Source of the DNA: an uncultured Bacillota bacterium
Lineage (GTDB): Bacteria > Bacillota_I > Bacilli_A > RFN20 > CAG-449
Assembly: GCA_905204225.1 (NCBI GenBank)
Contig: CAJKZK010000001.1
Coordinates: 4,506-68,505 of the forward strand
DNA: 64,000 nt
Reading direction: 5' to 3'
Each line of letters starts with the position of its first letter. The first letter of the stretch is position 1. The notes below the pieces were generated by a model. It was not told the DNA's origin. It made no database searches and saw only the letters and a list, made by a program, of their open reading frames with translations. Shown in pieces: positions 1-50,037 of this stretch. Position numbers and translations under genes: made by a program.

Positions 1-675
1 TGTAAAGAAGTTTGTGATGAAGGTATAAGAATGATGGAACTTGTTTATAATGGTATTTTGTTTGAAATACTAGATAAATTAGGTAAAATGCCTTTACCAC
101 CTTATATTCATAAACAATGTGAAGATAATTCTAGATATCAAACAGTTTATGCGAAAGTTGAAGGATCAGCAGCAGCACCGACAGCAGGATTTCATTTTAC
201 AAATGAATTATTTGATAAAATAAAACAAAAAGGCATTGAAGTTCTAGATGTTACTTTACATATTGGATTAGGCACATTTAGACCAGTAAAAACTAATAAT
301 ATTCTTGAACATCATATGCATTCAGAAGAATTTGAGATGACTCAAGAAGTGGCTGATAAATTAAATAAAGCAAAACAAGAAAATAGAAGAATTATTGCGA
401 TTGGCACGACTTCAACTAGAACATTAGAAGCAATTTATAAAAAATATGGTAAATTTGTTGCAACTAAAGAATCTACAAATATTTTTATTTATCCAGGATA
501 CAAATACGAAGCTATTAATGCTTTAATTACAAATTTCCATTTACCTAAATCTACTTTAATAATGCTTGTTTCTGCTTTAGCAGGCAAAGATTTTATTTTA
601 AAAGCATATAATGAAGCAGTTAAAGAAAAATATCGTTTCTTCTCTTTTGGAGATGCAATGTTTATCCATGAATAA
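1..675 (+). CDS. queA: S-adenosylmethionine:tRNA ribosyltransferase-isomerase QueA, 5'-truncated by the window edge (frame is open back to position 1)
   Basis: C-terminal QueA motifs ([17 protein letters not shown]). The reading frame continues upstream of position 1. Confidence 0.8.
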
Positions 676-1312
676 TAAAAAAACATTATATTATGATAAA
701 TCTATCGAAGAAATAGAAAATATAAAAAAATTAAATAAAAAACCTATTTTAGGAATTCATGTTTGCTGTGGACCATGTTCAACATTTCCATTACTTTTTC
801 TTGCACCTTATTTTCAAATAAAAATATTATATTGTAATTCAAATATATATCCAAGCGATGAATATTATCGAAGATTAAATGAATTAAAAAAATATGTAGA
901 AATATTTAATAAAGAACATTCTCAAGATGTAGAAATAATTGAATTTGAATATGATAACATTTCATATAACAAAGATTTAGAACCATATAAAGATGATTAT
1001 GAAGGTGGCAATAGATGTAAACTATGTTATGAAAAACGAATGGATATGACCTATAAATACGCTGATGAACATAATTATGATTATTTCACTACTGTTATGA
1101 CTATATCAAGACAAAAAAATTCTTATGTATTAAATGAAATAGGAGAAAAATTATCTCATAAGTATAAAACAAAATATTTTTATTCTGACTTCAAAAAGAA
1201 ACAAGGGATAGATAAATCAATAGAATTAAGAAAAAAATATAATCTTTATAATCAAGAATATTGTGGATGTATATATTCATATCAAAAATATTTAGAAAAA
1301 ATAAGCAAATAA
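668..1312 (+). CDS. queH: Epoxyqueuosine reductase QueH (DUF208). The likely start is the ATG at 668, overlapping the queA stop; the ORF-track start at 611 looks too long.
   Basis: HVCCGPCS Cys motif typical of QueH. Adjacent to queA. Confidence 0.65.
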
Positions 1313-1367
1313 AAAGGTGTAAATAAATTTTACACCTTATATAAGATAGACTTGATAGTCTATTTTT
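1313..1367. terminator. Pair of hairpins (aaggtgtaaa..ttacacctt and atagact-tga-tagtctat followed by a T-run) forming a bidirectional terminator between the convergent queH and lipoprotein genes
   Basis: Inverted repeats with flanking T/A runs, read directly from the sequence. Confidence 0.6.
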
Positions 1368-2484
1368 ATTTTGCTGTTAAACCAGATTTATTTGTAAATG
1401 AATTACCAGCTGCTACTGCAAAGTCTTCCATAGTGATTGTACAACCTGGAACTTCAACTGTACCATTAGGATTGTGGTTTGATTTATATGTTTTACCAGC
1501 AATTTCACTTGCAATTTTACCTTTTGCATATTTTGCAAAGTTATCAGCTTGTGTGAACCATTCACCAGCAGTTGCTTTATCTTTCATTGCATATAATTCT
1601 TTTAATTCACGTTTTGAAAGAACAGATGTATAATATTTGTTAGCTTCAGATTCAACTGTATGGCCTTTGAAATTTTCAGCTTTTGTTTGAGTTTTTGTTG
1701 TATCAATTGCAATTTTTGGTTCTGTAACTTTTGTTCCATCTACTGTAACAGGAATTTGATATGCATTGATTGATGTTTCATAAATTTTTCCATCTTTATC
1801 TGTTGCAGAACCTGCTAATGTAACTGTTAAAACGTTATCTTTTGATAATGCAGAAACTTTATAACCTAAACCAGCACTTACTTTTCCAGCAGGAGCTTTG
1901 AATGTTTTTGTATCTGTAATAACTTTTAAAGCTGTTGTGAAGTTCTTTTGGCTAATTGAGCAACCAGTAACAACTTCTGTTCCTTTTTCATTGTAATGAC
2001 TCTTATAATTTTTTGAAGTAACTTCATCAATTGTTTTACCAACTGTGTATTTAGCAAAGTTAGCAGCTTGAACATTCCATTCACCTTCTGCTGCGGTTGA
2101 AGCCATTCCATATCTTGTTTTTAATTCTTGTTTTGTTTCAATTACTTTGTCACCAGCATCTTTTGTTTGGTTTTTAGTTGTGTCTAAAGAAACTGTATAA
2201 GTGACTTTTTCAGTCTTTTTATCTGTTGTAGAATCAATTTTGAAAGGTGCTTGTAATACATCAAAATATGCATCGACAATCTTATCTCCTTTTAAAATAA
2301 CAGCTGCTGTACTAACTTCGATTTGGTTTGCATTTGAACCTAAAGCAACATAAGATCCTACTTTAAGAGTGAAATTAACTTCATCGTTTGTTGCAGGTTT
2401 TGATGATGATGTACCTGTACCATTACATGCTACGAGCATTAATCCCATTGCTAAAACAGGTAATACTTTTAATTTTTTATTCAT
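1366..2484 (-). CDS. Surface lipoprotein with two tandem FMN_bind-like domains (PplA-like candidate flavinylation substrate)
   Basis: Signal peptide with lipobox LVAC. Two internal repeats ending ...VVTGCSISQ and ...VEVPGCTIT, resembling the FMN_bind DxxSGAT motif. Sits next to an ApbE gene. Confidence 0.55.
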   Translation of the reverse strand: MNKKLKVLPVLAMGLMLVACNGTGTSSSKPATNDEVNFTLKVGSYVALGSNANQIEVSTAAVILKGDKIVDAYFDVLQAPFKIDSTTDKKTEKVTYTVSLDTTKNQTKDAGDKVIETKQELKTRYGMASTAAEGEWNVQAANFAKYTVGKTIDEVTSKNYKSHYNEKGTEVVTGCSISQKNFTTALKVITDTKTFKAPAGKVSAGLGYKVSALSKDNVLTVTLAGSATDKDGKIYETSINAYQIPVTVDGTKVTEPKIAIDTTKTQTKAENFKGHTVESEANKYYTSVLSKRELKELYAMKDKATAGEWFTQADNFAKYAKGKIASEIAGKTYKSNHNPNGTVEVPGCTITMEDFAVAAGNSFTNKSGLTAK

Positions 2485-2595
2485 AAATAAATATATCCTC
2501 CTTGAATAAAATCAATTATATTATAGCTTAATAAATTAAAATGTAAACAAAATCGATAAAAGTTTATTTAATTGGTTTAATTCTAATTTAATTTA

Positions 2596-3096
2596 TTAAA
2601 TTCTATTTAGCTTTTTTATAACTAATGATGAAATTATAGCAATAAAAACACTTGAAATAATACTTGATAATAAAATAATTGGTAAATATAGAATCATACC
2701 TTTCTCTATGATTATCATTGCACATAATATTTGTCCTAGACAATGAAATATAGCGGACACAGTACTAAGGGTATATATTGATATCTTTTTAATAAAACTA
2801 AATAATATTACCATAATTGATGAAAGTAAAAAGCCGGATAATGATAATAAAAATGAATTTGAGAATAAACCATTAAACATAACTCCTACTAATAACACTC
2901 GTAGTATGCCAATAGAAAAATATTCTTTTCTACCATAATAATATAAAACTATTAAATTTACTGTATTAGCTAAACCTAATTTTACACCTGGAAAAGATAC
3001 AAATAGAGGAACTAATGATTCTATGTAATTTAGTAAAGTTGCTAAAGCTAGAAACATCGCTAAGGTTGTTAATTTTTTTATTTTATTGTTTCTCAT
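2596..3096 (-). CDS. Gx transporter family / heptaprenyl-diphosphate-synthase-component-I-like small polytopic membrane protein
   Basis: 166 aa with about 5 TM helices. Its position next to a NusG-II protein and ApbE is typical for this family. Confidence 0.45.
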   Translation of the reverse strand: MRNNKIKKLTTLAMFLALATLLNYIESLVPLFVSFPGVKLGLANTVNLIVLYYYGRKEYFSIGILRVLLVGVMFNGLFSNSFLLSLSGFLLSSIMVILFSFIKKISIYTLSTVSAIFHCLGQILCAMIIIEKGMILYLPIILLSSIISSVFIAIISSLVIKKLNRI

Positions 3097-3105
3097 AATT
3101 AGTAC

Positions 3106-3603
3106 CTACACGATAATATCATCATCAGGAGTAGATGAAGAATTAACAATTTTTATTCTAACATAATTAGGCATACAAACTAATGGTGGATTATTTGGGT
3201 TGGAAATAGAACCTTGGTTTGAGCATATATGATTTGGTGATGTTTCTTTAACAATGGTTACTTTTTTATTGTTTATTTCGATTACTAAATCGTCTAATAA
3301 TAATGAATTATTTGCAAATTTTCTATCACTTGTAGTTGGATAAATATCATCATATTTATTTGATATGTCTTCTTTGAATAATATAATATATCTAGGATCT
3401 AAATCGTCTTTAGAAGGAGCTAAATCTGTTTTATAAATAACTTTGTTATCATAATATACTTCTACTTTAGCATTATCATTATTACTAGGAAATAAATAAA
3501 TAAAAAGTGTAAAAAATAAAGATATAAAAACGGTTGAAATAATGACAATTATATCAACTTTATTCCAGTCTAAGGCGAATGTTTTTTTGCTTTCTATTCT
3601 CAT
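3106..3603 (-). CDS. NusG domain II-containing membrane-anchored protein
   Basis: N-terminal TM helix plus a C-terminal domain with ICSNQG...LVCMPN motifs. Typical partner of Gx transporter genes. Confidence 0.45.
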   Translation of the reverse strand: MRIESKKTFALDWNKVDIIVIISTVFISLFFTLFIYLFPSNNDNAKVEVYYDNKVIYKTDLAPSKDDLDPRYIILFKEDISNKYDDIYPTTSDRKFANNSLLLDDLVIEINNKKVTIVKETSPNHICSNQGSISNPNNPPLVCMPNYVRIKIVNSSSTPDDDIIV

Positions 3604-3608
3604 AATAA

Positions 3609-5003
3609 TTAATAGTCTAAATTATGATAAATAACTTTGCAATCAGTTGGATTACTTTTTGTAAATAATTTATTTTTTTGAATACCTTTTGAAAGGTAAA
3701 CATCGACTTTTTCTTCTTTAGTTGGATTATCTTTTTTAAAGAAAACAAACTCTAAATCACCAAAATTATTATCGTTTCTTATTTTAGTTACATAATCTTT
3801 TATTTCGTCAAATGAACAATTAGATAAGATAGTTGATAAAGCGTCCATTTTAGTAGAAGAAATTGTATTAGAAATTAATAATATTTGGTTATAATAATCA
3901 TTAGGATAACCTGTAGTAGGATCAATAATATGATTTCTTAAAACAATATTATCGCCTATTTGCTTATAATAAAAATTTACTTGTGCTCCAGAAGTTGAAA
4001 TAGAATATTTTTTATTATCAAGTTTTACTTTACCTAAATATTGATAATTAACACCATAAGGATTTGATAATGCAATTGACCAATTATCAGAAAAAACTCT
4101 ATCACCGAAAAAGACCATTGAAGAAGTACCAGCATTCACCATTCCATAAGTTAAATCATTATCTTTATATCTTTGATATAAATTTTCAGTTAAATAACCT
4201 TTTCCAATACCTCCAAGAGTAATAGAAACTTTTTCTGCATTTTTATATTTATTAAACTTTACTTGATATGGATATTTGGTATTCTCTGAATCTTCTTTAA
4301 ATTCTAAAATAGTATTTAAATCATTCACTTGTGGTGTTTCATTTAAGCATATATTAATTTCTTCACTTGTTGGATCTTTATTATATTTATAGTTATCTTC
4401 TTTATCACCAAACATGATATTATTATAAGAAATATATCTATCCCACATATCTGAAAGTTCACCTACAAAAATATTGAATTTTCCATCACTAAATTTAGAT
4501 AACTCAATTGATTCTTTTAGTATTTGATATAAACGCGTATCAATATTAATCCATTTATTAGTTCCATAACTATCATTGATAACTTTTAAATTAGGAATAA
4601 GATTATCATCTTCATCAAAATAATAATAATGTCTATCAAATAAATAATGTGTGGTAGCAGTATATTCTCCTAAAATATTTTCAATAGAATTAATAACTTT
4701 AGTTGAAGTTAATTTTTCTTTTGCGTATCTAGTATAGAGTACATTTGTGTTAAATGGATTAATGCTAACACTTTCTTTTTTTTCAATATCATTATAAGCT
4801 AAAACTGGCTTAATTTGGGCAAGAATAGGGTAGTTTTCATCATTTAATGAACTTATATTTGTTCTACAATACTTGTTTTCAACATAGTCAGAAAAAATGG
4901 ATGTATCTAAAGAATAAGAATATTTTATAGGATCTTTTTGACAAGATGTGAATGTTGTAGCACTTAAAATTAAAAATGTAAGTATCTTATTTTTGTTTTT
5001 CAT
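3609..5003 (-). CDS. apbE: ApbE-family FAD:protein FMN transferase lipoprotein (extracytosolic flavinylation enzyme, FmnB-like)
   Basis: Lipobox FTSC. GGIGKGY motif matching the ApbE GxxAKGY consensus. 464 aa. Confidence 0.65.
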   Translation of the reverse strand: MKNKNKILTFLILSATTFTSCQKDPIKYSYSLDTSIFSDYVENKYCRTNISSLNDENYPILAQIKPVLAYNDIEKKESVSINPFNTNVLYTRYAKEKLTSTKVINSIENILGEYTATTHYLFDRHYYYFDEDDNLIPNLKVINDSYGTNKWINIDTRLYQILKESIELSKFSDGKFNIFVGELSDMWDRYISYNNIMFGDKEDNYKYNKDPTSEEINICLNETPQVNDLNTILEFKEDSENTKYPYQVKFNKYKNAEKVSITLGGIGKGYLTENLYQRYKDNDLTYGMVNAGTSSMVFFGDRVFSDNWSIALSNPYGVNYQYLGKVKLDNKKYSISTSGAQVNFYYKQIGDNIVLRNHIIDPTTGYPNDYYNQILLISNTISSTKMDALSTILSNCSFDEIKDYVTKIRNDNNFGDLEFVFFKKDNPTKEEKVDVYLSKGIQKNKLFTKSNPTDCKVIYHNLDY

Positions 5004-5359
5004 TTAAAATCCCTCAAGCATAATTATGATAGTCTATAAGAAAGGTTTTGACAATATTTTATTATTTATACAAAATTTTATTTATTTGTATGAAGCAAAA
5101 AGAAACACGGAAAGGAGTTGTCATTAATACGCGTGCATGCGCGTTATTATCATATAAACAAAAAAATAAAATAAAAAATTGTAAATAAATTGTTGACATC
5201 TTCTTTTCTATATAGTAATCTTTAAAAGGTTGACGCCTATTATAGTCACCACGTTGACGTGTAAGATTGCTAAACACGGATGTCCGTTGTCAACAGGAAG
5301 TTTAGGTCACTTACATCGAGTGGAATGTCTAGCCAGATTTAGACAAGGAGGAAATTAAA
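5004..5359. promoter_or_regulatory. 356-bp divergent intergenic region between the ApbE operon and rpsJ, containing promoter elements and a structured rpsJ 5' leader
   Basis: TTGACA at 5193. Repeated GTTGAC(G) motifs and short hairpins at 5250-5300. GC-rich ACGCGTGCATGCGCGT element at 5129-5144. RBS AGGAGG just before the rpsJ ATG. Confidence 0.4.
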
Positions 5360-5668
5360 ATGGCAAGTAAAAAAATCAGAATTCGCTTAAAAGCTTATGA
5401 TTATCGTATTCTTGATGTTTCAGTTGAGAAAATCATTGCTGCTGTTAAGAATTCTGGAGCAACAGTTGTTGGACCAATCCCTCTACCAACAGAGAAACAA
5501 GTCTATACAATTTTAAGAGCAGTTCACAAATATAAAGATGCTCGTGAACAATTCGAGATTAGAACTCACAAGAGATTAATCGATATCGTTAATCCAAACA
5601 AACAAACAATCGATACATTAACTCACTTAGATTTACCAAGTGGTGTTGATATCGAAATCAAATTATAA
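5360..5668 (+). CDS. rpsJ: 30S ribosomal protein S10
   Basis: Conserved S10 sequence. First gene of the S10 operon. Confidence 0.95.
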
Positions 5669-5685
5669 GAAAGGAGCAGAATACT

Positions 5686-6366
5686 ATGAAATCAATCGTA
5701 GGAAGAAAAATGGGTATGACTCAAGTTTTCGCTCAAGATGGAACAATGTATCCTGTTACCGTCATTGAAGTCTTACCTAATGTTGTTACACAAGTAAAAA
5801 CAATGGAAAAAGATGGTTACAACGCAATTCAAGTAGGTTATGAAGATAAAAAAGAAGTTCGTTGTACAAAACCAGAATTAGGACAATTAAAAAAAGCAAA
5901 TTGCTCACCTAAATATGTCTTAAAAGAAATCGCAACTGATACTCAATACAATGTTGGCGATGAAATTAAATGTGATATCTTTGCTGCAAATGATGTTATT
6001 GATGTAGTTGGTACAAGCAAAGGTCGTGGATTCTTAGGTGCAATCCAAAGATATGGTTACACAATTGGTCCTAAAGGACACGGTTCTGGATACCATAGAG
6101 GCTCTGGATCATTTGCTACAAATGGTAGAACAAACAACAGAGTTCACCCAGGAAAGAAATCAGCTGGTCATGAAGGTAATGAAAGAGTTACAATTCAAAA
6201 TTTAACAATTGTTTCAGTTGATGCTGAACATAATGCAATTTTAGTTAAAGGTGCAGTTCCTGGACCAAAGAAATCAATCGTTGTATTAAAGAGTGCTGTA
6301 AAAGCTTCATTAGTAAAACCAAATATTAAAGAATTAGTAAATTACAGCGCATCAAAAGCTGAATAA
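5686..6366 (+). CDS. rplC: 50S ribosomal protein L3
   Basis: GRKMGMTQVF motif. Operon position. Confidence 0.95.
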   Translation: MKSIVGRKMGMTQVFAQDGTMYPVTVIEVLPNVVTQVKTMEKDGYNAIQVGYEDKKEVRCTKPELGQLKKANCSPKYVLKEIATDTQYNVGDEIKCDIFAANDVIDVVGTSKGRGFLGAIQRYGYTIGPKGHGSGYHRGSGSFATNGRTNNRVHPGKKSAGHEGNERVTIQNLTIVSVDAEHNAILVKGAVPGPKKSIVVLKSAVKASLVKPNIKELVNYSASKAE

Positions 6367-19871: not shown

Positions 19872-19896
19872 TTTGTTAATATTAATGAGGTGTTTA

Positions 19897-20610
19897 ATGA
19901 TTAGGATTGCTATAGTAGATGATGATACTACCGATGCAGAAACATTAGAAAATATTTTAAAAAAATATGAAAAAGAACATTCTAATGTTAATTTTTACAT
20001 TAAAAAATTTTCTACAGCAATTGCTTTTTTAGATAAATATCAACCATTTGATATAGTTTTTATGGATATTGAAATGCCAACAATGACAGGTATGGAAGCA
20101 TGTTATAAACTAAGAGAAATTGATCAAACAATAGCAATTATATTTGTCACAAATATGGCACAATTTGCAGTTGAAGGTTATATTGTTAGAGCATTTGATT
20201 TTGCAGTTAAGCCAATTAGTTATGGTAATTTGGCGTTAAAATTAGATAGAGTAATAGAGTATATTTCTCATTTTACTGGGAAAATAATACATATTAAAAC
20301 ACCTGAAAAAACATTACAAATTTCTTTAGAAGAAATTATTTATATTGATATTTATAATTATATTCTTACATATCATACTATTAATGATAAAATCGATGTA
20401 ACTACTACAAGCTTATTAGATATAGAAAAACAATTAATAAATTATGGATTTTTTAAAATCAATAGAAGTACAATAGTTAATCTAAAATATATAAAATCTG
20501 TTAAAGATACATTAGTTGATGTTAATGGTAATATTTTAACTTTATCAAGAAGAAGAAAAAAAGAATTTATGGAAAAATTAACAGAATATTTTGGAGAAAG
20601 CAATATTTAA
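19897..20610 (+). CDS. LytTR-family response regulator (receiver domain plus LytTR DNA-binding domain). Start taken at the ATG at 19897 (MIRIAIVDDD).
   Basis: Receiver aspartate context IVFMDIEMP. C-terminal LytTR-like region. RBS GAGG. Confidence 0.8.
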   Translation: MIRIAIVDDDTTDAETLENILKKYEKEHSNVNFYIKKFSTAIAFLDKYQPFDIVFMDIEMPTMTGMEACYKLREIDQTIAIIFVTNMAQFAVEGYIVRAFDFAVKPISYGNLALKLDRVIEYISHFTGKIIHIKTPEKTLQISLEEIIYIDIYNYILTYHTINDKIDVTTTSLLDIEKQLINYGFFKINRSTIVNLKYIKSVKDTLVDVNGNILTLSRRRKKEFMEKLTEYFGESNI

Positions 20611-20611
20611 T

Positions 20612-21964
20612 ATGTCAAATTTATTTTTCTTTAGACCCTTATTTATGTTAGAACTAATTTTAGCAGAAGCAATGTTTCTTTCAAAATTAAATATAAGAAC
20701 TAATTTTTTTATAAGATTGATTATTTCTTTGATTTTTTGCTTTGGTGTTTCTTTTATTTTACCAACAAATTTTGAAAATATTTATTATTATTCTTTTTTA
20801 TTTTTAATAATGTTTTTGGTTACTATTATAGCGAGTATGTTTTGTTTTAAAGCACCTCTTAAAAATATTTTATTTTGTGCAATTGCTGGATATACTATAC
20901 AACATATTGCTTCAGAATGTTATGAAATGTTTAATAATTATATGAACTTGATTATTGAAAAATCATTTAATTTTTATGATGCTGAAGGCACTATTGATAT
21001 AAATGCACAAAATTATTTCTTTTTATTAGTCTATTTTGCTATTTTTGTAATTATTTATGGCTTAGTATATTATTTAATTGTACCTAAAGTTGAAAAATAC
21101 AAAGTTTTACAAACTAACAATAAAGTAATATTATCTTTATCAATTTTTATTGTTTTAATTGATGTTATTATAGGAGCAATAATTTTATTTATTTTACCTG
21201 AAAAATATTTAGTGTCATTATCAAAATTAGTAAAATTTAGTGTATATTTTTTATTACATTTTTATAACATTTTATGTTGTGTTTTAGCAATAGTATTATT
21301 AATTGAGCTACCTCGCCGTAGTAGTGCGGAAAGTGATTTAATAACTGTTAATAAATTATATAAAATAGAACAATCACAATACAATTCAGTAAAAGAAAAT
21401 TTAGATTTAATTAATATTAAATGTCACGATTTAAAGCATCAAATGAGAAATATACTTAATAATAAACAAGTAGACACAAGTGAAATAAATAAAATAGAGC
21501 AAGCAATTGATATTTATGATTCTACATATAAAACAAAAAATGAAGCATTAAATATTGTATTAATGGAAAAAGGGTTAATATGTAAAAAAAATAAAATCGA
21601 ATTAACTTGTATAATAGATGCATCAAAATTATCTTTTATTAAAGATAATGATATTTATTCATTATTTGGCAATTTATTAGATAATGCGATTGAGGCAGTA
21701 AAAAATCTTGAACAAAGTAAAAGAGTAATTAGTTTGCAAATAAAGAATAGTGGAGAATTTTTAATTATAAAAACATATAATAATTATAATGGAAAAATCA
21801 ACTTTGTTAATAATTTACCAATTACAACAAAAGAAGATAAAGATTATCATGGATATGGATTAAAAAGCATTAATTATATTGTTAAATCTTATGATGGACA
21901 AATGAAAATAAAAACTAATAATCAAGTTTTTGATTTGACAATTCTTTTTCAAACAAACAAATAA
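20612..21964 (+). CDS. AgrC/HPK10-like membrane sensor histidine kinase (about 6 TM helices plus GHKL ATPase)
   Basis: N-terminal polytopic region. H-box KCHDLKHQ. C-terminal LLDNAIEA...HGYGL GHKL motifs. Translationally coupled to the upstream response regulator. Confidence 0.7.
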   Translation: MSNLFFFRPLFMLELILAEAMFLSKLNIRTNFFIRLIISLIFCFGVSFILPTNFENIYYYSFLFLIMFLVTIIASMFCFKAPLKNILFCAIAGYTIQHIASECYEMFNNYMNLIIEKSFNFYDAEGTIDINAQNYFFLLVYFAIFVIIYGLVYYLIVPKVEKYKVLQTNNKVILSLSIFIVLIDVIIGAIILFILPEKYLVSLSKLVKFSVYFLLHFYNILCCVLAIVLLIELPRRSSAESDLITVNKLYKIEQSQYNSVKENLDLINIKCHDLKHQMRNILNNKQVDTSEINKIEQAIDIYDSTYKTKNEALNIVLMEKGLICKKNKIELTCIIDASKLSFIKDNDIYSLFGNLLDNAIEAVKNLEQSKRVISLQIKNSGEFLIIKTYNNYNGKINFVNNLPITTKEDKDYHGYGLKSINYIVKSYDGQMKIKTNNQVFDLTILFQTNK

Positions 21965-22087: not shown

Positions 22088-23638
22088 ATGAAAATTAAAT
22101 CAAAACTTTTACTTTTGATTTCATTTATGTTGCCAATTTTTTCGTTAACAAGTTGTAATGAAACTCCTAAACATGTTTGTAATGAACCATGTCCAACATG
22201 TGGAGGTTGTCTTGATAATAAATGTCAAGAAGAAGCATGCTTAACAAAATGTAGTTGTGAAGTAATAGTTAAATCAGTGGATATAACAAGTATGCCGTTA
22301 AAAACAAATTATTATCCAGGAGAGATTTTTTCACCTGAAGGTTTAGTGGTTAAAGCTAATTTATCAAATGGAAAAACAAAAAAATATAGTTATAGAAAAT
22401 TTGATACTTGGACTCATAAGGACGAACCATTAACTGAAGATATTAAAAAAATCACTTTTACAATTCCGAAATATAATTTTGATTTTGATGTAGAGATTAA
22501 AGTTGAATTACCTAATGATTTATCTATTGTTGTTGATAAAAGTTTACTAAAAGAAACATATTTAACTACTGATATTATTGATTTTACAATAATAAATGTT
22601 AGAGCTAAAATTGGTGAAACAATGACTTTGCTAAAAGCTGATCAATGGAAATTATATGATGGTACAAATCTTATCGAAGATAAAACACAGGTAAGTCTAA
22701 GTGAAGGTGAACATTTAATAAAAATTGAATATGTACCAACTGTTGATTATAGTTTTACTTTAAAAATAAATGATCCAAATAATGTTATTTCTCCAGATCA
22801 TGTTGAAGCAGAAGATTGTGTTTATAATATAGACTCAAACGCACCATACACAATTAAAGAAAAAGTTGCAAATGCTCAATATCCTGATGAAAATGGTAAT
22901 TTATCAGATCAATTATTTAAAAAAATACCAAATGGAGCAAGTGGTACAGGAGCAGTTTCATCATTATCTGCATCACAAAATGGTAAGAATGTCTATTTTA
23001 AATTTAATATTAAAGTTCCTACAACTGGCGAATATGATTTATTAGCAAGAGTGCAAGGAACAGGTGAAAATCAAATTAAAAATAATTTTAAAGTTTCTAT
23101 TAATAATGGTGAAGAAATGATTTCAACAAGCACTGATACAATTCATGCTGGTAATCAAATTAAAAATCAATATGGTAAAGAAGGTTTTATTGGTTGGTAT
23201 AACATGTTTTGGTGGAATGTTGTCAATATTGGAACATATTCACTTACAAAAGGTGATAATGAAATAAAAATTACAATGCCAAAAGGATTAGGTGGAAATA
23301 TTGATTATTTTGAAGTTGTAAGTAAAGGTGAAATACATGAAACTCAATTATTTAGTATGAGAGAAGGAAGTAGAGTAAATTTATCAACAAATCCAATTTA
23401 TTTAAAATATGGTGAAAAATTAATAGATAAAGTAGCTACACCAATTGGTCACCCATGTAAATATACATTAATTTATTTAAGACTAGATGATGGTTGTGAA
23501 ATTCCTGTAACTGAAGATTTAATGAACGAAATTGATTATACCAAAACTGGTGAGCAAGAAGTAAATATAACATTTACTAAAAAAGAAAAAACATATAATG
23601 CTTCATTCAAAATAATAATTGAAGCTGAAGAAGAATAG
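22088..23638 (+). CDS. Surface lipoprotein with a Cys-rich N-terminal segment, a CBM6/CBM35-like carbohydrate-binding module and an Ig-like domain
   Basis: Lipobox LTSC. 10 Cys within about 35 aa after the signal peptide. EAEDCVY...GEYDLLARVQG...WWN...NIDYFEV jelly-roll motif shared with the next gene. Confidence 0.6.
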   Translation: MKIKSKLLLLISFMLPIFSLTSCNETPKHVCNEPCPTCGGCLDNKCQEEACLTKCSCEVIVKSVDITSMPLKTNYYPGEIFSPEGLVVKANLSNGKTKKYSYRKFDTWTHKDEPLTEDIKKITFTIPKYNFDFDVEIKVELPNDLSIVVDKSLLKETYLTTDIIDFTIINVRAKIGETMTLLKADQWKLYDGTNLIEDKTQVSLSEGEHLIKIEYVPTVDYSFTLKINDPNNVISPDHVEAEDCVYNIDSNAPYTIKEKVANAQYPDENGNLSDQLFKKIPNGASGTGAVSSLSASQNGKNVYFKFNIKVPTTGEYDLLARVQGTGENQIKNNFKVSINNGEEMISTSTDTIHAGNQIKNQYGKEGFIGWYNMFWWNVVNIGTYSLTKGDNEIKITMPKGLGGNIDYFEVVSKGEIHETQLFSMREGSRVNLSTNPIYLKYGEKLIDKVATPIGHPCKYTLIYLRLDDGCEIPVTEDLMNEIDYTKTGEQEVNITFTKKEKTYNASFKIIIEAEEE

Positions 23639-23648
23639 AGGAAAAAAT

Positions 23649-23780
23649 ATGGAAAAAAATATGTATTACACTCCAATTATAAGTGTAAAGAAAATTAATT
23701 TAGATGATGTAATTTGTGTCTCTTTTGATACAAAAGATGAAAATAACATTTATCAAAATGTTGATGTAACATTGGATTAA
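23649..23780 (+). CDS. Unannotated 43-aa ORF (MEKNMYYTPIISVKKINLDDVICVSFDTKDENNIYQNVDVTLD) with strong RBS AGAGGA, exactly filling the gap between the two CBM-protein genes
   Basis: ATG 8 nt after the RBS. Has a homologue at 33343-33480. No signal peptide. Confidence 0.4.
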   Translation: MEKNMYYTPIISVKKINLDDVICVSFDTKDENNIYQNVDVTLD

Positions 23781-23794
23781 GATGAGGTTATAAA

Positions 23795-26032
23795 ATGAAA
23801 AAATATAATAAATTAATGATATTATCATTATCAATGTTAATGATGATACCTTCAATAATTGTTAATAATGAAAACTCATTAATATGTTCTACAACTGATG
23901 TATTTAATGAAAAAGCACATATTGAAACAAGATTACTTAATCAATTAACTGATACTAATGAAACTGTAAAATGTTCTAATATGTATGTACAATATGGTTA
24001 TGATGGAACTAATTATTATTTAAGATACGCTACTGCAATTAAAGGTGATATTGAAACATTAAATTACAAAATGTTTATTAATGATGAAGAATATATTGCT
24101 GGAGAAAAAAATGCAGATGTTTTATACAAAAGCATATTATCTAATGGTACTAGACAATATTATAATGGTAACGAATTAACAACTACTCCAACTGAATATT
24201 TATGGACTTGCTATACTATAAAATTTGCTAGTGAAAAACATCAAGCAGATAATATAGCTGTTTATTTAAATATAAATAATGCAAACACTGTTTCTAAATC
24301 AACATCATTATTAGAAGAAATGAATGTTGAACCAGATCATATTGAAGCAGAAGATTGTGTTTATTTACTTGAAAATGATAATAAATACACTTTAAGTGAA
24401 GCTTCAGCAAATGCTCAATATCCTGATGAAAATGGTAATTTATCAGATCAATTATTTAAACAAATACCAAATGGAGCAAGTGGTAAAGGTGCAGTTTCTT
24501 CATTATCTAAAGGACAAAATGGTACAAAAGTATATTTTGAATTTACTGTTAACGCTCCAACTTCTGGAGAATATGAACTTTTAGCGAGAGTACAAGGAAC
24601 AGGTGAAAGCTCAATTAATGGATTATTTAATGTAAGTATTAATGGTGAAGAAGGAACTTTAAATACTTCAAATGATAAAATACTTAAAGGTAATCAATTA
24701 AAAGAACAATATAACACATCTAGTGATTATTTGAGTTGGTATAACATGTTTTGGTGGAATATGGTTAATATTGGAACATATTCTTTAAATAAAGGTGAAA
24801 ACACAATAAAAATCACATTGCCTAATGGATTAAGTGGTAATATTGATTATTTTGAAATTCAAAACAAAAATAGTGCAAAAACATCTAAAATTTTCAGTTT
24901 TAGAGAAGGATCAAGAAATGAATTATCAACAAATAATGGATTAACTTTAATTGAAAATGGATTATTATCTGATAAGTCTGGTACTCCAGCAAATCACCCT
25001 TGTAAATATACTTTAATGTATATAAGATTATTAGATGGTAGTGAACACCCAATTACTGAAGAAATGTTAACTAATTATAGTAATATTGATTATACAAAAG
25101 TTGACCAAGAACAAATTGTAACAATTAATTATAAAGAAAATACAGCGTCTTTTAAATTATTTATTGTTAAAGAAAATTATGATATTTATGAAGCAGAAGA
25201 TAATGTTTATAAGTATAAAAATGGAGAAGAAACCACAAATAAATATGCTTCAGTTAACAATTTAACTAATATAGAATATTATGAAAATGAAACATTAAAG
25301 TCAGAACAAACTAAAGATGGCTCAAGCAATAAAAAAGTTATAGCTTTAGGTGCAGGTGCTAGCAATCATGGTAAAGAAGTTTTCTTTAAATTTGAAGTAA
25401 ATGTACAAGAAACAAAAGATTATTATTTATTTTCAAGATTACAATCTTCAAATGAAAATGATTTGATTAATTGTTTTGAAATTAATATAAATGAAGAAAA
25501 AGATGAAAATGGAAAATTAAAATATTATAAAAATAATTATAGTCAAATTCCTTCATTATGTAATCAAACAACAACATTTAATAATGTATGGAATAATGCA
25601 ATGTGGTTTGGTATGGCAAATTTAGGAAAAATTCATTTAACTAAAGGAAACAATATAATTAGAGTTCGTATGCCAAATGGAATAAGTGCGAATATTGATT
25701 TCTTCCAAGTTAGAGAAACAGATTCATTTGGTGCAAATTTATTTACAGTAAGAGATGGATCACATACTAAACTTGATTCATTAACACTTGAAAAAAATCA
25801 AAAAATTACTGATATTATTTCAACTCCTAGTGCACACCCATATCAATATACATTAATGTATTTAAGATTACCAAATGGTAATGAGTATCCTGTTGTTACA
25901 AAACCTAGCGAAGGAACAAATGTAAATTATGTTGGTGTTTTAAGTGATATTGATTATACTTTATCTTCTCAAAAAGTCACCGTTACTAACGGAAATTACA
26001 AATTATCATTTACTTTAAATATAAATTTATAG
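23795..26032 (+). CDS. Secreted surface protein with two CBM6/CBM35-like modules and Ig-like domains (paralogue of the 22088 gene)
   Basis: Signal peptide. Two copies of the EAED...YxLxxRxQ...WxN...NIDxF module, the first closely similar to the 22088 protein. Confidence 0.6.
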   Translation: MKKYNKLMILSLSMLMMIPSIIVNNENSLICSTTDVFNEKAHIETRLLNQLTDTNETVKCSNMYVQYGYDGTNYYLRYATAIKGDIETLNYKMFINDEEYIAGEKNADVLYKSILSNGTRQYYNGNELTTTPTEYLWTCYTIKFASEKHQADNIAVYLNINNANTVSKSTSLLEEMNVEPDHIEAEDCVYLLENDNKYTLSEASANAQYPDENGNLSDQLFKQIPNGASGKGAVSSLSKGQNGTKVYFEFTVNAPTSGEYELLARVQGTGESSINGLFNVSINGEEGTLNTSNDKILKGNQLKEQYNTSSDYLSWYNMFWWNMVNIGTYSLNKGENTIKITLPNGLSGNIDYFEIQNKNSAKTSKIFSFREGSRNELSTNNGLTLIENGLLSDKSGTPANHPCKYTLMYIRLLDGSEHPITEEMLTNYSNIDYTKVDQEQIVTINYKENTASFKLFIVKENYDIYEAEDNVYKYKNGEETTNKYASVNNLTNIEYYENETLKSEQTKDGSSNKKVIALGAGASNHGKEVFFKFEVNVQETKDYYLFSRLQSSNENDLINCFEININEEKDENGKLKYYKNNYSQIPSLCNQTTTFNNVWNNAMWFGMANLGKIHLTKGNNIIRVRMPNGISANIDFFQVRETDSFGANLFTVRDGSHTKLDSLTLEKNQKITDIISTPSAHPYQYTLMYLRLPNGNEYPVVTKPSEGTNVNYVGVLSDIDYTLSSQKVTVTNGNYKLSFTLNINL

Positions 26033-26040
26033 GTTTAAAT

Positions 26041-29000
26041 ATGGAAAAATCACTTTTAAGAAAAGTAATTATTTTACCTTGCATGGCCGTAATATTAGCT
26101 GGCCTTGCAGTAGGTAATTACGAATGTTATATTCATGAAAATGAAATTACATCTCAACTTGTTCCTGCTAAAATAACTTATGATAATTCAAAATTATCAG
26201 AAGCACAAATGGCGGCAGGTAATGTTGTCAATCAAATAGCTCAAGAAGGTATGACATTAATGAAAAATGATGGAACATTACCTTTAGAAATTGATGAAGA
26301 CGATGAAGATGGTTATCCAATCAATTTATTTGGAATAGGAAGTACTGATGCCGAAAATGGCTTTTACTTATTTGGTGGTGGCTCTGGTTCTGTAACTTTA
26401 TATGATAAAGATAAAGTTACTTTACAACAAGGAATTGAACAAGCTGGCTTTGAAGTTAATACTTCCTTACTAAATTTCTTTAAAGAAGAAGGAGAAAATC
26501 CTAAAGAAAGTTGGTGGGAAAAAGAACAAAATATTCTTAAATCAGCAAAAGCATTTTCTGATACAGCTGTAGTAACTATATCAAGATTTACTGGTGAAAA
26601 TTGTGATGCTGATGAAAATACAACTGATCAAACTTCATATTCATTTAGTAAACCTTATCAAGCATCTTATAATGATAATGATTTAGATGGTAGAAATTTT
26701 TGTCAATTATCATTAAGAGAAGAAGCTATGTTAAAGTGGGTTAGCAATAATTTTGGTGAAGTAATAGTTTTAATCAATAGTGGAAACATGATGGAATTAG
26801 GTTTTTTAGACAATCCTAAAATTAATGCTATTTTGTATACTTCATATCCAGGAAAATCTGGAACAAAAGCAATAGGAGATATTCTAGCTGGAAAAGTAAA
26901 TCCAAGTGGACATTTAACTGATACTTTTGTTTATGATACCAAAAGTGATCCAACATGGGCTAATGTTATTGCTAAAAAAGATAATGGTACACAAATTCAC
27001 TATGTAGAAGATATTTATACTGGGTATAGATGGTATGAAACAGCTGACAAAGAAGGATATTTTAATTCTATTGGTAAAAACTATAATGAAGTTGTTTTTA
27101 GACCATTTGGATATGGATTATCTTATACAACATTTGAATGGAATTTTAAAAATATTTCTTTTAAAAATGGTGATACAATTATACCAGCAATTAATGGAGA
27201 TAATGTTAAAGATAAAGATACAAAAATTTTAATTCAGGTTGAAGTAAAAAATACTGGATTAGTCGCTGGTAAAGATGTTGTTCAATTATATTACACCGCA
27301 CCATACACAAAAGGTGGTATTGAAAAAGCGTATGTTAATTTAGTTGCATTTGAAAAAACAGAGATGCTATATCCACTTTCTCAATCAAGTGAAGACAAGC
27401 CGAATAGTCAAATTTTGTCTTTAGAATTTAGCTTGTATGATATGGCAAGTTATGATGCTTATGATAAAAATAAAAATAATTTTACAGGGTATGAACTTGA
27501 AAAAGGTGAATATCAATTAAAATTACAAAATAATGCTCATGAATTAAATAAGTGTGAAAATAGTACTATTAAAATAAATTTAACTAATGATTTAAAATGG
27601 GATAAAGATCCAAATACAAATGGAACTATAAAAAATAGATTTACAGGTTCGACAGCTGAAAACAATATTCCAATTGATGGTAATAATAATGGTGAAAAAA
27701 TAACATATTTGTCAAGAGCAGATTTTTTATCAACATTTCCAAAAACAACTACTCCAAATAGAACTTCAGGAGCAGATTCTACTAAAGATGGAACTTATGT
27801 TACAGATGAAGAATATTATAAAGATATTACAATGCCAACTTTAAATAGTACTGAAACAAATTTATTATTATATACTTTAGAAAATGGTGAAAAAGCGTCA
27901 ACTAATGATTTAAGTGGATATACAAACAATAAAATAATTCCTAACGAAGAATTAATTTTAAAATTAGGTGAAAACTATGATGCACCTGAATGGGAACAAT
28001 TATTGAATCAATTATCATATATAGAAATAGTTGATATTGTTGCTCGTTGTAGTTGTGGAACAGCTCCAGCTGAATCTATTGGAAAACCTAAAACAAGAGT
28101 TTTTGATGGACCTCAAGGAATTAACAATTCAACACTTTCTCCAGAACAATTAGCTGATGTAACTGCATTTCCAGCTGAAACTTTAGTAGGTATGACTTTT
28201 AACAAAGAACTTGCTAGATTAGAAGGTGCGGCAATGGCAACTGAAGCTTCATTAACAGGAACAATAGGAATATATGCTCCAGCAGTTGATTTGCATCGTC
28301 ATGCTTATAATGGTAGAAATTATGAACAATATAGTGAAGATCCTTATTTATGTGGAATTATGGGTGGTAAAATGGCAACAGGTGCTATTACACATGGTTG
28401 TCAAGTCTCTATAAAACATTTTGTTTGTTCTCAACCTGGAAGAAATCCTAGAGACTATAATACATGGTTAACAGAACAAAATTTAAGAGAAAATTATCTA
28501 AAACCGTTTGAAATTGCTATTAAAGAAAGTAAAGCAAATTTCTTGATGACATCATTTAATAACATAGGCGGAGTAAGATGTGCTTATTCTTATCAATTGT
28601 TAAATGGAGTATTAAGAGAAGAATGGGGATTCAAAGGATCAATTATTACGGATTATGATGTTAATAGTGCATCAAGAACTACTGCAAATTTAATTAGATC
28701 TGGTAATGATTTAAGATTCCAAGGAAGTGTTGCTAATAGAGCAGAACTTGATAAAAACAATGTAGTTGATGTTTATTTAGCTAGACAATCTGTAAAAAGA
28801 GACTTATGGTCATTTTGTAATACATATTATAGAACTAAAAATTATGATCCAAATTACACGTCAACAAATGTTATTGTCACTCAACCATTTGTATGGTGGA
28901 TAATGGTAGTAATAATGATAGATGTGATAATTATAGGTGGAATTGGTGTAGGAATTTTCTTCTTATTTAAGCCAAAGAAAAAAGCACTAGTAAATAATAT

Positions 29001-29193
29001 TGAGACAGATAGTTCTCAAGAAAAATCTGAACATAAATTTTTATACAAAAAGAAAGAAAATCTTTCTTCAACTAGCGCTCAAAATGTTGTAATTGATAAT
29101 AACCAAGAAAAATTTTCTATATCAAAAAAAGATTATGAAGAACTCATTGATTTAATTGATAAATTACAAGATAAATTAAAAAAATTAAAATAA
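26041..29193 (+). CDS. Glycoside hydrolase family 3 (beta-glucosidase/xylosidase-like) with permuted domain order and N- and C-terminal TM anchors
   Basis: GH3 C-domain-like region first (MKNDGTLPL, VNPSGHL, FGYGLSYTTF), then GH3 N-domain motifs (KHF, GFKGSIITDYD with catalytic Asp). One TM helix near each terminus. Confidence 0.65.
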   Translation: MEKSLLRKVIILPCMAVILAGLAVGNYECYIHENEITSQLVPAKITYDNSKLSEAQMAAGNVVNQIAQEGMTLMKNDGTLPLEIDEDDEDGYPINLFGIGSTDAENGFYLFGGGSGSVTLYDKDKVTLQQGIEQAGFEVNTSLLNFFKEEGENPKESWWEKEQNILKSAKAFSDTAVVTISRFTGENCDADENTTDQTSYSFSKPYQASYNDNDLDGRNFCQLSLREEAMLKWVSNNFGEVIVLINSGNMMELGFLDNPKINAILYTSYPGKSGTKAIGDILAGKVNPSGHLTDTFVYDTKSDPTWANVIAKKDNGTQIHYVEDIYTGYRWYETADKEGYFNSIGKNYNEVVFRPFGYGLSYTTFEWNFKNISFKNGDTIIPAINGDNVKDKDTKILIQVEVKNTGLVAGKDVVQLYYTAPYTKGGIEKAYVNLVAFEKTEMLYPLSQSSEDKPNSQILSLEFSLYDMASYDAYDKNKNNFTGYELEKGEYQLKLQNNAHELNKCENSTIKINLTNDLKWDKDPNTNGTIKNRFTGSTAENNIPIDGNNNGEKITYLSRADFLSTFPKTTTPNRTSGADSTKDGTYVTDEEYYKDITMPTLNSTETNLLLYTLENGEKASTNDLSGYTNNKIIPNEELILKLGENYDAPEWEQLLNQLSYIEIVDIVARCSCGTAPAESIGKPKTRVFDGPQGINNSTLSPEQLADVTAFPAETLVGMTFNKELARLEGAAMATEASLTGTIGIYAPAVDLHRHAYNGRNYEQYSEDPYLCGIMGGKMATGAITHGCQVSIKHFVCSQPGRNPRDYNTWLTEQNLRENYLKPFEIAIKESKANFLMTSFNNIGGVRCAYSYQLLNGVLREEWGFKGSIITDYDVNSASRTTANLIRSGNDLRFQGSVANRAELDKNNVVDVYLARQSVKRDLWSFCNTYYRTKNYDPNYTSTNVIVTQPFVWWIMVVIMIDVIIIGGIGVGIFFLFKPKKKALVNNIETDSSQEKSEHKFLYKKKENLSSTSAQNVVIDNNQEKFSISKKDYEELIDLIDKLQDKLKKLK

Positions 29194-39172: not shown

Positions 39173-40144
39173 ATGGAAGCAAAAATTACAAAACAAGAAA
39201 TTGAAACATTATCAAGAACTCCAGGAAAACGTAAATGGTATTCTAAAATAGGATTAGCTCTTTTTGTAATGACAATTCCTACTATATTGTATATCTTTAT
39301 TTTTCATTATCTTCCTTTGAGTGGGTTAGTTATAGCATTTAAAGATTATACTTCTTTTAAAGGAATATTTGGTTCTCCTTGGACTTCAATGGGAGGCTTT
39401 AAACATTTTTATACATTTATAACTGCTCCAAATTTTTGGACTATTATAAGAAATACTTTAGTTTTATCAATAGCATCTATTATTTTTAATTCAATTTTAC
39501 CTATTATATTTGCTTTATTATTGAATGAAATAAAAGTAAAAAAATATAAAAGACTTATTCAAACTATAATGTATGCACCATATTTTATTTCAGTATCTGT
39601 TTTAGTTGGCATGATGTTTGCTTTCTTTAAAGTTGATAGTGGAATTTTTACAAGAATATTTGCTTTTTTTGGTTTTGATGCAACTAATTTAATGGAAAAT
39701 CCTGATTATTTTTGTATGCTATATGTTGTTTCTGGTTTGTGGCAAGGTTTAGGTTGGTGGTCAATTGTTTATATGGGTAGTTTAGCAAATGTTGACCCTA
39801 ATTTGCATGATGCTGCAATTATTGATGGAGCAGGAAGAGGTAGAAGAATTCTATATGTCAACTTACCTCAAATTATTCCTTTGGCAGTAATTATGTTTAT
39901 TATGTCAATTGGAAATATTTTAAGTGTTGGTTTTGAAAAAGTATATTTAATGCAATTATCAACGAACTTGTCTTCTTCAGAAATTATTGCAACATATGTT
40001 TATAATATTTCGTTCCCTAAATTTGGATCAGCTCAATATTCATACGCTACAGCAATTGGATTGTTTAATTCTGTGGTTAATATTATAATCTTATGTTTAG
40101 GAAACTTTGTTTCTAAAAAAGTTAGTGATAATTCACTATGGTAG
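39173..40144 (+). CDS. Carbohydrate ABC transporter permease (LplB/YtcP-like)
   Basis: 6 TM helices. Sugar ABC permease signature region. Confidence 0.75.
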   Translation: MEAKITKQEIETLSRTPGKRKWYSKIGLALFVMTIPTILYIFIFHYLPLSGLVIAFKDYTSFKGIFGSPWTSMGGFKHFYTFITAPNFWTIIRNTLVLSIASIIFNSILPIIFALLLNEIKVKKYKRLIQTIMYAPYFISVSVLVGMMFAFFKVDSGIFTRIFAFFGFDATNLMENPDYFCMLYVVSGLWQGLGWWSIVYMGSLANVDPNLHDAAIIDGAGRGRRILYVNLPQIIPLAVIMFIMSIGNILSVGFEKVYLMQLSTNLSSSEIIATYVYNISFPKFGSAQYSYATAIGLFNSVVNIIILCLGNFVSKKVSDNSLW

Positions 40145-40153
40145 GAGATAGTT

Positions 40154-41020: not shown

Positions 41021-41031
41021 GGAGAAAAATT

Positions 41032-42762: not shown

Positions 42763-42765
42763 TTT

Positions 42766-47762: not shown

Positions 47763-47794
47763 TTTTTTTTGAAGTATATTTATAAGGAGGAACA

Positions 47795-49975: not shown

Positions 49976-49985
49976 AAAAATAAAT

Positions 49986-50022
49986 ATATATGGAGTTAGG
50001 ATTAATTCCTAATTCCATATTC
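49986..50022 (+). terminator. 12-bp stem hairpin (ATGGAGTTAGGA-ttaa-TTCCTAATTCCAT) between the Big_2 lipoprotein gene and the next gene. Possible terminator or attenuator; no T-run.
   Basis: Inverted repeat with one mismatch. Confidence 0.35.
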
Positions 50023-50037
50023 ATATAAGGGGGCTTT

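Follow-up and report, generated by a model that had tools for sequence, protein, structure and literature searches.

The window analyzed here is a stretch of 64,000 nucleotides (64 kb) from an uncultured Bacillota bacterium, and its positions 5003-1366 carry four co-directional open reading frames (ORFs) on the minus strand that we describe as a putative cassette for extracytosolic flavinylation. In gene order these encode an ApbE-family FMN transferase, homologues of EetA and EetB, and a lipoprotein built of two similar domains. The genes are separated by only 5, 9 and 111 bp, counted from apbE onward, and the region reads cleanly under genetic code 11 at a GC content of approximately 25% (positions 1-6000). 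An earlier description made from the letters of the DNA (the sequence-only reading) had proposed an ApbE, a NusG domain II protein, a Gx-transporter-like protein and a second lipoprotein at this place. All four ORFs were confirmed at their minus-strand coordinates, and the first three matched PF02424, PF07009 and PF07456, respectively, above the gathering score. The features of the locus are listed in Table 1.

The four genes of the cassette

The first ORF matched Pfam PF02424 with an E value of 2.6e-35 and a score of 122.7 bits against a cutoff of 25.6. Its N terminus, read by eye, is MKNKNKILTFLILSATTFTSC21, in which charged residues are followed by a hydrophobic run and the lipobox cysteine, consistent with a lipoprotein signal (..FTSC21). 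All of the relatives of this protein in the Protein Data Bank (PDB) are titled 'FAD:protein FMN transferase', the best being 7esa (E value 6.7e-14), and Ser338, His358 and Asp387 of the window protein align with S237, H253 and D281 of that structure. We take 7esa to be FmnB with its numbering shifted by 20 residues for a missing signal peptide, in which case the three aligned residues would be Ser257, His273 and Asp301. A catalytic triad of Ser257, His273 and Asp301 has been described for FmnB (PMC12052999). The Asp-Ser-His triad described for FmnB and Vibrio cholerae ApbE is thus conserved in the alignment, and the window ApbE looks catalytically competent. The additional Arg262 that is specific to FmnB corresponds to Asn343 in the window protein; V. 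cholerae ApbE is among the enzymes that likewise do without this arginine (PMC12052999).

The second ORF matched the NusG_II family PF07009 (E value 1.2e-15, 58 bits, cutoff 29.6) and has a single hydrophobic segment at residues 13-40, N-terminal to the NusG_II domain. Listeria lmo2639 is described as DUF1312, which we presume to be the former name of PF07009. The third ORF is hydrophobic over most of its length and matched Hpre_diP_synt_I, PF07456 (E value 1.2e-30, 106.9 bits, cutoff 30), together with a weak NCBIfam match to a family of energy-coupling factor (ECF) permeases. It keeps 26 of the 28 positions that are conserved at 80% or more in an alignment of 44 EetB sequences. The sequence-only reading had stated that EetA and EetB were absent from the neighborhood, and this was mistaken: eetB homologues have been defined as members of PF07456 (Rivera-Lugo 2023, PMC9973259), and Data Set S1 of the same paper labels NusG_II (PF07009) as EetA. 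The window eetB adjoins eetA, with apbE in the same cassette, and this is a common association: of 4,214 genomes, 3,328 have eetB colocalized with eetA and 2,169 have it colocalized with apbE (PMC9973259).

The role of this pair of genes had also been called open. In Listeria, EetB binds FAD and is similar to the substrate-binding subunits of ECF transporters, deletion of eetB leaves PplA unflavinylated with partial rescue by external FAD, and EetB appears to export FAD together with FmnA (the ECF-T subunit) and EcfA/A', supplying the ApbE homologue FmnB (PMC9973259). Since the window pair are EetA and EetB, their role is largely explained, though less so for EetA, which has no phenotype in Listeria yet is required for flavin-dependent extracellular electron transfer (EET) in L. 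plantarum. The window EetA retains Cys127 and a Cys143-x-Pro145-Asn146 motif, and among 43 EetA sequences both cysteines and the proline are invariant and the asparagine is present in 91%. The two cysteines may form an extracytosolic disulfide or a metal site, which is perhaps relevant to what EetA does.

Table 1. Features of the cassette and its flanks, with window positions
Feature	Position	Strand	Basis
apbE/fmnB-like gene for a 464-aa lipoprotein (lipobox Cys21), FAD:protein FMN transferase	3609-5003	-	PF02424
eetA homologue, single-pass membrane protein with NusG_II domain, 165 aa	3106-3603	-	PF07009
eetB homologue encoding a 166-aa polytopic membrane protein, small and ECF-S-like, predicted to export FAD	2596-3096	-	PF07456
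Two-domain lipoprotein gene, FMN-bind2-like family, 372 aa, lipobox Cys20, predicted ApbE substrate	1366-2484	-	Profile methods, context
Lipoprotein domain 1, residues 28-187	1924-2403	-	Domain HMM, i-E 2.1e-58
Lipoprotein domain 2, residues 189-367	1384-1920	-	Domain HMM, i-E 1e-59
Predicted flavinylation site 1, T173-G174-C175-S176, acceptor Ser176	1957-1968	-	Translation, family alignment
Predicted flavinylation site 2, P346-G347-C348-T349, acceptor Thr349	1438-1449	-	Translation, family alignment
Promoter-like site 5' of apbE, TTGTCA-17-TATCAT	5026-5054	-	Consensus scan, weak
Promoter-like site 5' of the lipoprotein gene, within the 111-bp gap, TTTACA-16-TATAAT, 11/12	2520-2547	-	Consensus scan, weak
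Terminator-like hairpin 3' of the lipoprotein gene	1314-1338	-	Sole such site in 1200-5400

The lipoprotein family and its predicted flavinylation sites

The product of the fourth gene begins with a lipoprotein signal (..LVAC20), as had been proposed, and a hidden Markov model (HMM) of its domain resolves it into an internal duplication with copies of 160 and 179 amino acids. Conventional annotation is silent on this protein. Neither Pfam nor NCBIfam assigned it to a family, even at an E value of 0.1 or less, a PDB sequence search with the lipoprotein alone returned nothing, and Foldseek searches of the PDB with AlphaFold2 (AF2) models of the full protein and of a single domain gave no significant match and no FMN_bind entry. 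The models have long beta strands and pLDDT values of 88.9 for the full lipoprotein and 89.5 for domain 2 modeled singly. A word-indexed search found 111 homologues, none of which carried a Pfam domain or a name beyond 'hypothetical protein'; the only name from a cluster look-up was 'hypothetical protein [Bacilli bacterium]', a search of a second database with the family profile gave matches without names or Pfam labels, and the family has no InterPro or Pfam entry. It is nonetheless large. An exhaustive profile search recovered 1,992 cluster representatives (clustered at 50% identity) at an E value of 1e-3 or less, and 711 of 1e-30 or less. The family occurs in Erysipelotrichaceae and other Bacillota. 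Most members are two-domain proteins of 330-390 amino acids and some have four or six domains, the copy number being two in 236 proteins, three in nine, four in 11 and six in two; the four- and six-domain members include the proteins P0112-P0124, of 630-990 amino acids.

A relationship to FMN_bind emerged from profile comparisons. The family profile matched the solved protein 2kzx with an E value of 4.2e-7, placing the '..agCSI..' of the family on 'DAISGATI', and the matched segment of 2kzx itself passes the Pfam FMN_bind model (25.7 bits, cutoff 22). An independent profile-profile alignment of the family with 35 RnfG sequences by hhalign gave a P value of 1.7e-5 at a probability of only 56%; between the first hairpin and the motif its register agrees with the 2kzx match, and there is an insertion after the third strand. 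We conclude that the lipoprotein repeats are probably divergent relatives of FMN_bind, detectable only by profile methods. PF04205, the Pfam FMN_bind model, also matched 10 of 128 family members, and in the four of these ten that were inspected the match was to a fused N-terminal extra domain; we therefore rejected these matches as a direct Pfam link for the family, and they count as evidence by fusion and not by identity. The four proteins in question (P0148, P0163, P0169 and P0214, of 470-500 amino acids) carry a canonical FMN_bind domain fused ahead of the two-domain unit and are predicted to be three-flavin proteins. Among the close relatives of the window lipoprotein there are also circular permutants (locus L008:5141-6223, encoding P0097, and also P0091, P0092, P0094 and P0096) in which, according to the alignment, the beta segment that opens domain 1 ('YTLKFGS..VEVSTAAV..DVLQAP') stands at the C terminus instead of the N terminus. 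Permutation is described for FMN-bind1 proteins and not for the FMN-bind2 class in the accessible part of Huang 2024 (PMC11334425).

The peptides VVTGCSIS and VEVPGCTIT, which had been picked out as flavinylation sites, are present in the translation, as E-V-V-T-G-C175-S176 and V-E-V-P-G-C348-T349. Across the family, 555 domains from 257 proteins were counted, of which 544 are ungapped at the acceptor column. That column holds threonine in 410 and serine in 134 domains, and thus a serine or threonine in every ungapped domain of a family whose divergence reaches approximately 25% identity, and it aligns with the threonine of SGAT in both 2kzx and RnfG. The residue before the acceptor is cysteine in 376 of the 555 domains, valine in 134 and alanine in 23, and the one before that is glycine in 342 and serine in 148, with Gly-Cys (319 domains) and Ser-Val (98 domains) as the favored pairs. 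The canonical ApbE motif is D-x-x-[S/T]-G-A-[S/T], in which replacing alanine with valine keeps approximately 50% of flavinylation and replacing aspartate with alanine has little effect (PMC12052999). Relative to this motif the window sites keep the glycine and the serine or threonine acceptor, the alanine is replaced by cysteine and the aspartate by glutamate or valine, and at site 2 the [S/T] position is proline.

The sequence-only reading had pointed to this cysteine as a non-canonical residue. It does replace the alanine; however, it is not peculiar to this gene. Because cysteine is the commonest residue of the family at this position and alternates there with valine and alanine, it is not special to the locus and a thiol-specific role is unlikely, and the preference for Gly-Cys and Ser-Val pairs points to a role in packing rather than to one of the thiol. 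Cysteine occupies the position in 196 of 198 domains of the window's own lineage, and Cys175 and Cys348 are the only cysteines of the mature lipoprotein. Together with the concordance between domains described below, these two facts would speak for a reading in which the cysteine beside each predicted flavinylated residue is functional, in this Mollicutes-like gut lineage, in a minimal, donor-independent surface redox device, where a thiol-flavin or an inter-domain Cys-Cys couple would act on extracellular disulfides, oxidants or host-derived acceptors, but we consider this distinctly improbable. More generally, censuses of ApbE substrates would in that case be missing a major class, a Pfam-invisible family of approximately 2,000 clusters with a G-C/S-V-[S/T] motif. 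Two-domain proteins tend to have the same residue in both domains (Cys/Cys in 63, Val/Val in 38 and mixed in six), and this concordance could be due either to subfamily inertia or to coupling between the two sites.

Genomic context, conservation and the rest of the window

Scanning one genome per species gave at least 496 relatives of the lipoprotein, of which the best 80 loci were analyzed. The 80 loci rank highest by tblastn against a single peptide pattern, and many of the contigs are short; their ORFs were searched with HMMs derived from the window itself and from loci that carry annotation. ApbE was encoded within 10 kb of the lipoprotein gene in 74 of the 80 loci and lay immediately downstream on the same strand in 66; of the six loci without it, three end approximately 190 bp or less downstream of the lipoprotein gene. 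EetB was found nearby in 34 loci and EetA in 33. Two or more Rnf subunits were encoded near the lipoprotein gene in 29 loci, and 11 had an Ndh2-like gene, a polyprenyl synthase gene and a UbiA prenyltransferase gene upstream, with both arrangements present in two. An Rnf or Ndh2/Dmk electron-transfer context was therefore seen in 38 of the 80 species, and the 42 with neither should be read as an upper bound because many contigs are short.

The commonest order in Clostridia was lipoprotein-ApbE-RnfCDGEA-EetA-EetB (loci L006, L015, L023, L038, L053, L060, L062, L073 and L088). In the 11 loci of the other type, all three upstream genes were confirmed by Pfam. The Ndh2-like protein is 700 amino acids long, with a Pyr_redox_2 domain at residues 4-324 and a long hydrophobic C-terminal extension, and in these Ndh2-DmkB-DmkA loci the lipoprotein occupies the position that PplA has in Listeria. 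Two Lachnoclostridium metagenome-assembled genomes (L030 and L063) have Ndh2-DmkB-DmkA upstream and RnfCDGEA downstream of one and the same lipoprotein-ApbE pair, which suggests that two membrane donors may share a single flavinylated lipoprotein.

The four-gene order of the window is kept, with the same neighbors, on three contigs whose lipoproteins are 98% identical to that of the window (L001-L003), and the order is also kept in L008, at 45% lipoprotein identity, and in L009-L011 and L013, where identity ranges from 87% down to approximately 30%. Conservation of this synteny exceeds chance. The ratios of nonsynonymous to synonymous substitution rates (dN/dS) against the closest relative, L009, were 0.14 for apbE, 0.06 for eetA, 0.04 for eetB and 0.51 for the lipoprotein gene, and the ratio was below 1 for all four genes, reaching 0.63 against more distant relatives. 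All four genes are under purifying selection, and the surface lipoprotein is the least constrained. Compared with its counterpart at L009:6805-7914, the lipoprotein gene has a dS of 0.15, with neighboring genes at 0.34-0.60, and a dN of 0.074, above that of its neighbors. Either recombination or pressure to diversify at the cell surface may explain this combination.

The closest named relative of the host genome is uncultured Mollicutes bacterium UMGS1395, and other relatives are labeled as uncultured Bacilli, Firmicutes and Clostridium sp. CAG:288. From the names of these relatives we infer that the host belongs to RF39, and by analogy with RF39-like relatives its genome is probably reduced.

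The neighbors of the cassette, queA and queH at one end and the S10 ribosomal protein operon at the other, are encoded on the opposite strand. The two promoter-like sites in Table 1 are weak evidence, because the counts of such sites in this AT-rich region are not above those in shuffled sequence; together with the terminator-like hairpin they would be compatible with an operon in which the lipoprotein gene may have an internal promoter of its own. An Rfam scan of the whole window found one tRNA only, with no FMN riboswitch or other leader near the cassette genes. No further member of the lipoprotein family is encoded in the window, nor is any other protein that would plausibly be an ApbE substrate. 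A single [ST]GA[ST] motif occurs in it, within ribosomal protein S10, and was dismissed as a chance match in a cytosolic protein.

The remainder of the window consists of ribosomal and housekeeping genes and of a large polysaccharide-utilization region. Within the stretches 22088-29193 and 39173-53794, two paralogous secreted proteins share a C-terminal repeat that was recognized by eye, 'PDH[VI]EAEDCVY..QYPDENGNLSDQLFK'. Beside them lies a gene for a GH3-like protein of 1050 amino acids with a C-terminal membrane anchor, the GH3 label resting on Pfam matches to a similar gene in the loci of relatives. Further on there are a large sugar-ABC cluster and, as judged by eye, proteins resembling beta-helix polysaccharide-utilization enzymes. 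Many Bacillota carry ecfA-ecfA'-ecfT directly after rplQ. In the window, rplQ, with which the ribosomal protein/alpha operon ends, is directly followed (19873-21964) by a LytTR response regulator and a GHKL-type sensor kinase.

Possible roles and comparison with known systems

The interpretation that we favor, and hold to be fairly probable, is that apbE, eetA, eetB and the lipoprotein gene form a self-contained extracytosolic flavinylation cassette whose lipoprotein acts as an electron relay at the cell surface. In such a scheme EetB would export cytosolic FAD, probably with a housekeeping ECF-T subunit and ATPase encoded elsewhere and with EetA as its partner. The membrane-anchored ApbE would use the exported FAD, linking FMN through a phosphoester to Ser176 and Thr349 of the lipoprotein. 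The doubly flavinylated lipoprotein would then be a PplA-like surface relay, linking an electron donor in the membrane to acceptors outside the cell or to flavin-dependent reductases.

Several observations weigh against this interpretation. HMMs for RnfC, D, G, E and A found nothing in the 64 kb window, and Ndh2, DmkA/DmkB and quinone synthesis genes are absent both from it and from the 10 kb flanking the locus in close relatives. As no electron donor is encoded in the window we do not name one, and on this point the sequence-only reading, which had noted that Ndh2 and DmkA were not adjacent and had left the electron source open, stands. Genes for ECF-T or an ECF ATPase were likewise seen neither among the window ORFs, inspected by eye, nor in the annotated 10 kb flanks of relatives. 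Models of the gut lineages RF39 and RFN20 describe a fermentative metabolism with PFOR and [FeFe] hydrogenase, and retention of Rnf is reported for other Tenericutes, namely Izemoplasmatales and a wastewater group (PMC7301438). The lipoprotein gave no match to Pfam FMN_bind (PF04205) at an E value of 0.1 or less. The sequence-only reading had proposed FMN_bind-like repeats and had said that their failing FMN_bind models would refute it; formally they do fail. Finally, the two sites depart from the canonical motif at two or three positions, and we found no report in the literature of flavinylation at a G-C-[S/T] site.

Given the lack of an electron donor or acceptor gene in the window and in the 10 kb flanks of close relatives, the cassette might instead serve flavin salvage or trafficking, with an ApbE that acts like Treponema pallidum Ftp, a lipoprotein that binds or stores flavin at the cell surface and an ECF-S-like protein that imports it. 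The accessible parts of two reports describe T. pallidum ApbE homologues with hydrolytic and trafficking roles (PMC4767422, PMC4436053), and a genome that is probably reduced and vitamin-auxotrophic would suit a salvage system. ECF-S proteins are classically importers and sequence alone gives no direction, yet the Listeria member of PF07456 exports FAD with strict directionality (PMC9973259). Salvage also sits poorly with an ApbE that conserves the FMN-transferase catalytic triad, with an invariant serine or threonine that suits covalent attachment and not reversible binding, and with the ties of the lipoprotein family to Rnf or Ndh2/Dmk loci in 38 of 80 species. We regard it as unlikely.

We give no more credence, and no less, to the idea that the main client of ApbE and EetAB is a complex encoded elsewhere in the genome (RnfG/RnfD, an NQR-like complex or another), to which the lipoprotein would be an accessory partner instead of serving as a PplA-like relay in its own right to acceptors outside the cell. 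It is the Clostridia that make this idea attractive, through the gene order described above and through the colocalization of eetB with Rnf in 572 Clostridia genomes (PMC9973259), and one uncultured Bacilli genome (L088) has the Rnf arrangement as well. It is countered by the absence of Rnf subunits both from the 64 kb window and from within 10 kb of the cassette in eight relatives of the lineage, and by the retention of Rnf in the Izemoplasmatales and wastewater group and not in the gut RF39/RFN20 models (PMC7301438). That the lipoprotein is an unrelated surface protein such as an adhesin or solute binder, merely syntenic with apbE and with a fortuitous GC[ST] match, is very improbable: it fails Pfam FMN_bind, lacks an FMN_bind match in Foldseek, is annotated only as hypothetical and has a fairly high dN/dS, but against this stand the acceptor residue in 544 of 544 ungapped domains, significant profile matches that put the acceptor column on the flavinylated threonine of FMN_bind proteins, ApbE nearby in 74 of 80 species and the family members fused to canonical FMN_bind domains.

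Flavinylation of the G-C-[S/T] sites, if it occurs, would mean that the G-A-[S/T] motif accepted for ApbE is too narrow, and a family of approximately 2,000 clusters that is invisible to Pfam and NCBIfam would represent, in gut Bacillota, a major class of extracytosolic flavoproteins. Surveys based on PF04205 miss this family. The cassette further suggests that a fermenter with a small genome keeps a surface flavin relay, and the donor to such a relay is a question for gut redox ecology. The logic of the cassette, namely FAD export, ApbE and a two-flavin lipoprotein, is already published and no new principle is involved; the remaining interest is modest and lies in a donor-less version, from a gut lineage whose genome is probably small, and in a large family of predicted ApbE substrates outside the consensus motif.

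Among published families the lipoprotein is closest in description to FMN-bind2. The accessible part of Huang 2024 (PMC11334425) describes FMN-bind2 domains as approximately 160 amino acids long, with sheet-extending insertions, occurring in twos and fours and forming a pseudo-symmetric two-flavin unit, and as found by BLAST and having no InterPro entry, the example being NTW96865.1 from an Erysipelotrichaceae bacterium. The family shares with them domains of approximately 160 amino acids, a mostly even copy number, an insertion after the third strand and long beta strands, and it fits FMN-bind2 by this published description as distinct from a sequence comparison with NTW96865.1. Neither the Cys/Val variant of the motif nor the Rnf and FLEET contexts are taken up in that part of the paper.

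The likeness to FmnB and PplA of flavin-based EET that the sequence-only reading had proposed is supported, and genomic context and remote homology favor the two GC[ST] motifs as flavinylation sites. Like the flavinylation and FAD-supply part of the FLEET locus of Listeria monocytogenes (FmnB, PplA, EetA and EetB; PMC9973259), the window has an ApbE lipoprotein and EetA/EetB encoded by adjacent, co-directional genes, and a lipoprotein with two predicted flavinylation sites; in contrast, Ndh2, DmkA, DmkB and FmnA (ECF-T) of the Listeria system were not found at the window locus. PplA and the enterococcal Cad have canonical SGAT/TGAT sites and were modeled on 3O6U, that is, they are of the FMN-bind1 type (PMC7074142). 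The window lipoprotein, with G-C-[S/T] sites and no Pfam FMN_bind match, was therefore rejected as an orthologue of PplA, and its family is better described as a PplA analogue.

The clostridial ApbE-Rnf-EetAB clusters (Rivera-Lugo 2023; Meheust 2021, PMC8238504) bring together the same four gene families, and many genomes of Oscillospiraceae and Lachnospiraceae have a member of the lipoprotein family encoded immediately upstream of the gene run apbE-rnfCDGEA-eetA-eetB. The window locus differs from these clusters in lacking the Rnf operon, in its rearranged order, with apbE first and the lipoprotein gene last, and in its place between queH and the S10 operon. Treponema pallidum Ftp, as far as the accessible parts of the reports cited above describe it, resembles the window ApbE in being a membrane-anchored ApbE-family lipoprotein of a host-associated bacterium. 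Ftp is described as an FAD pyrophosphatase acting alongside a riboflavin importer of the ABC type, whereas the partners of the window ApbE are EetA/EetB and a candidate covalent flavin acceptor.

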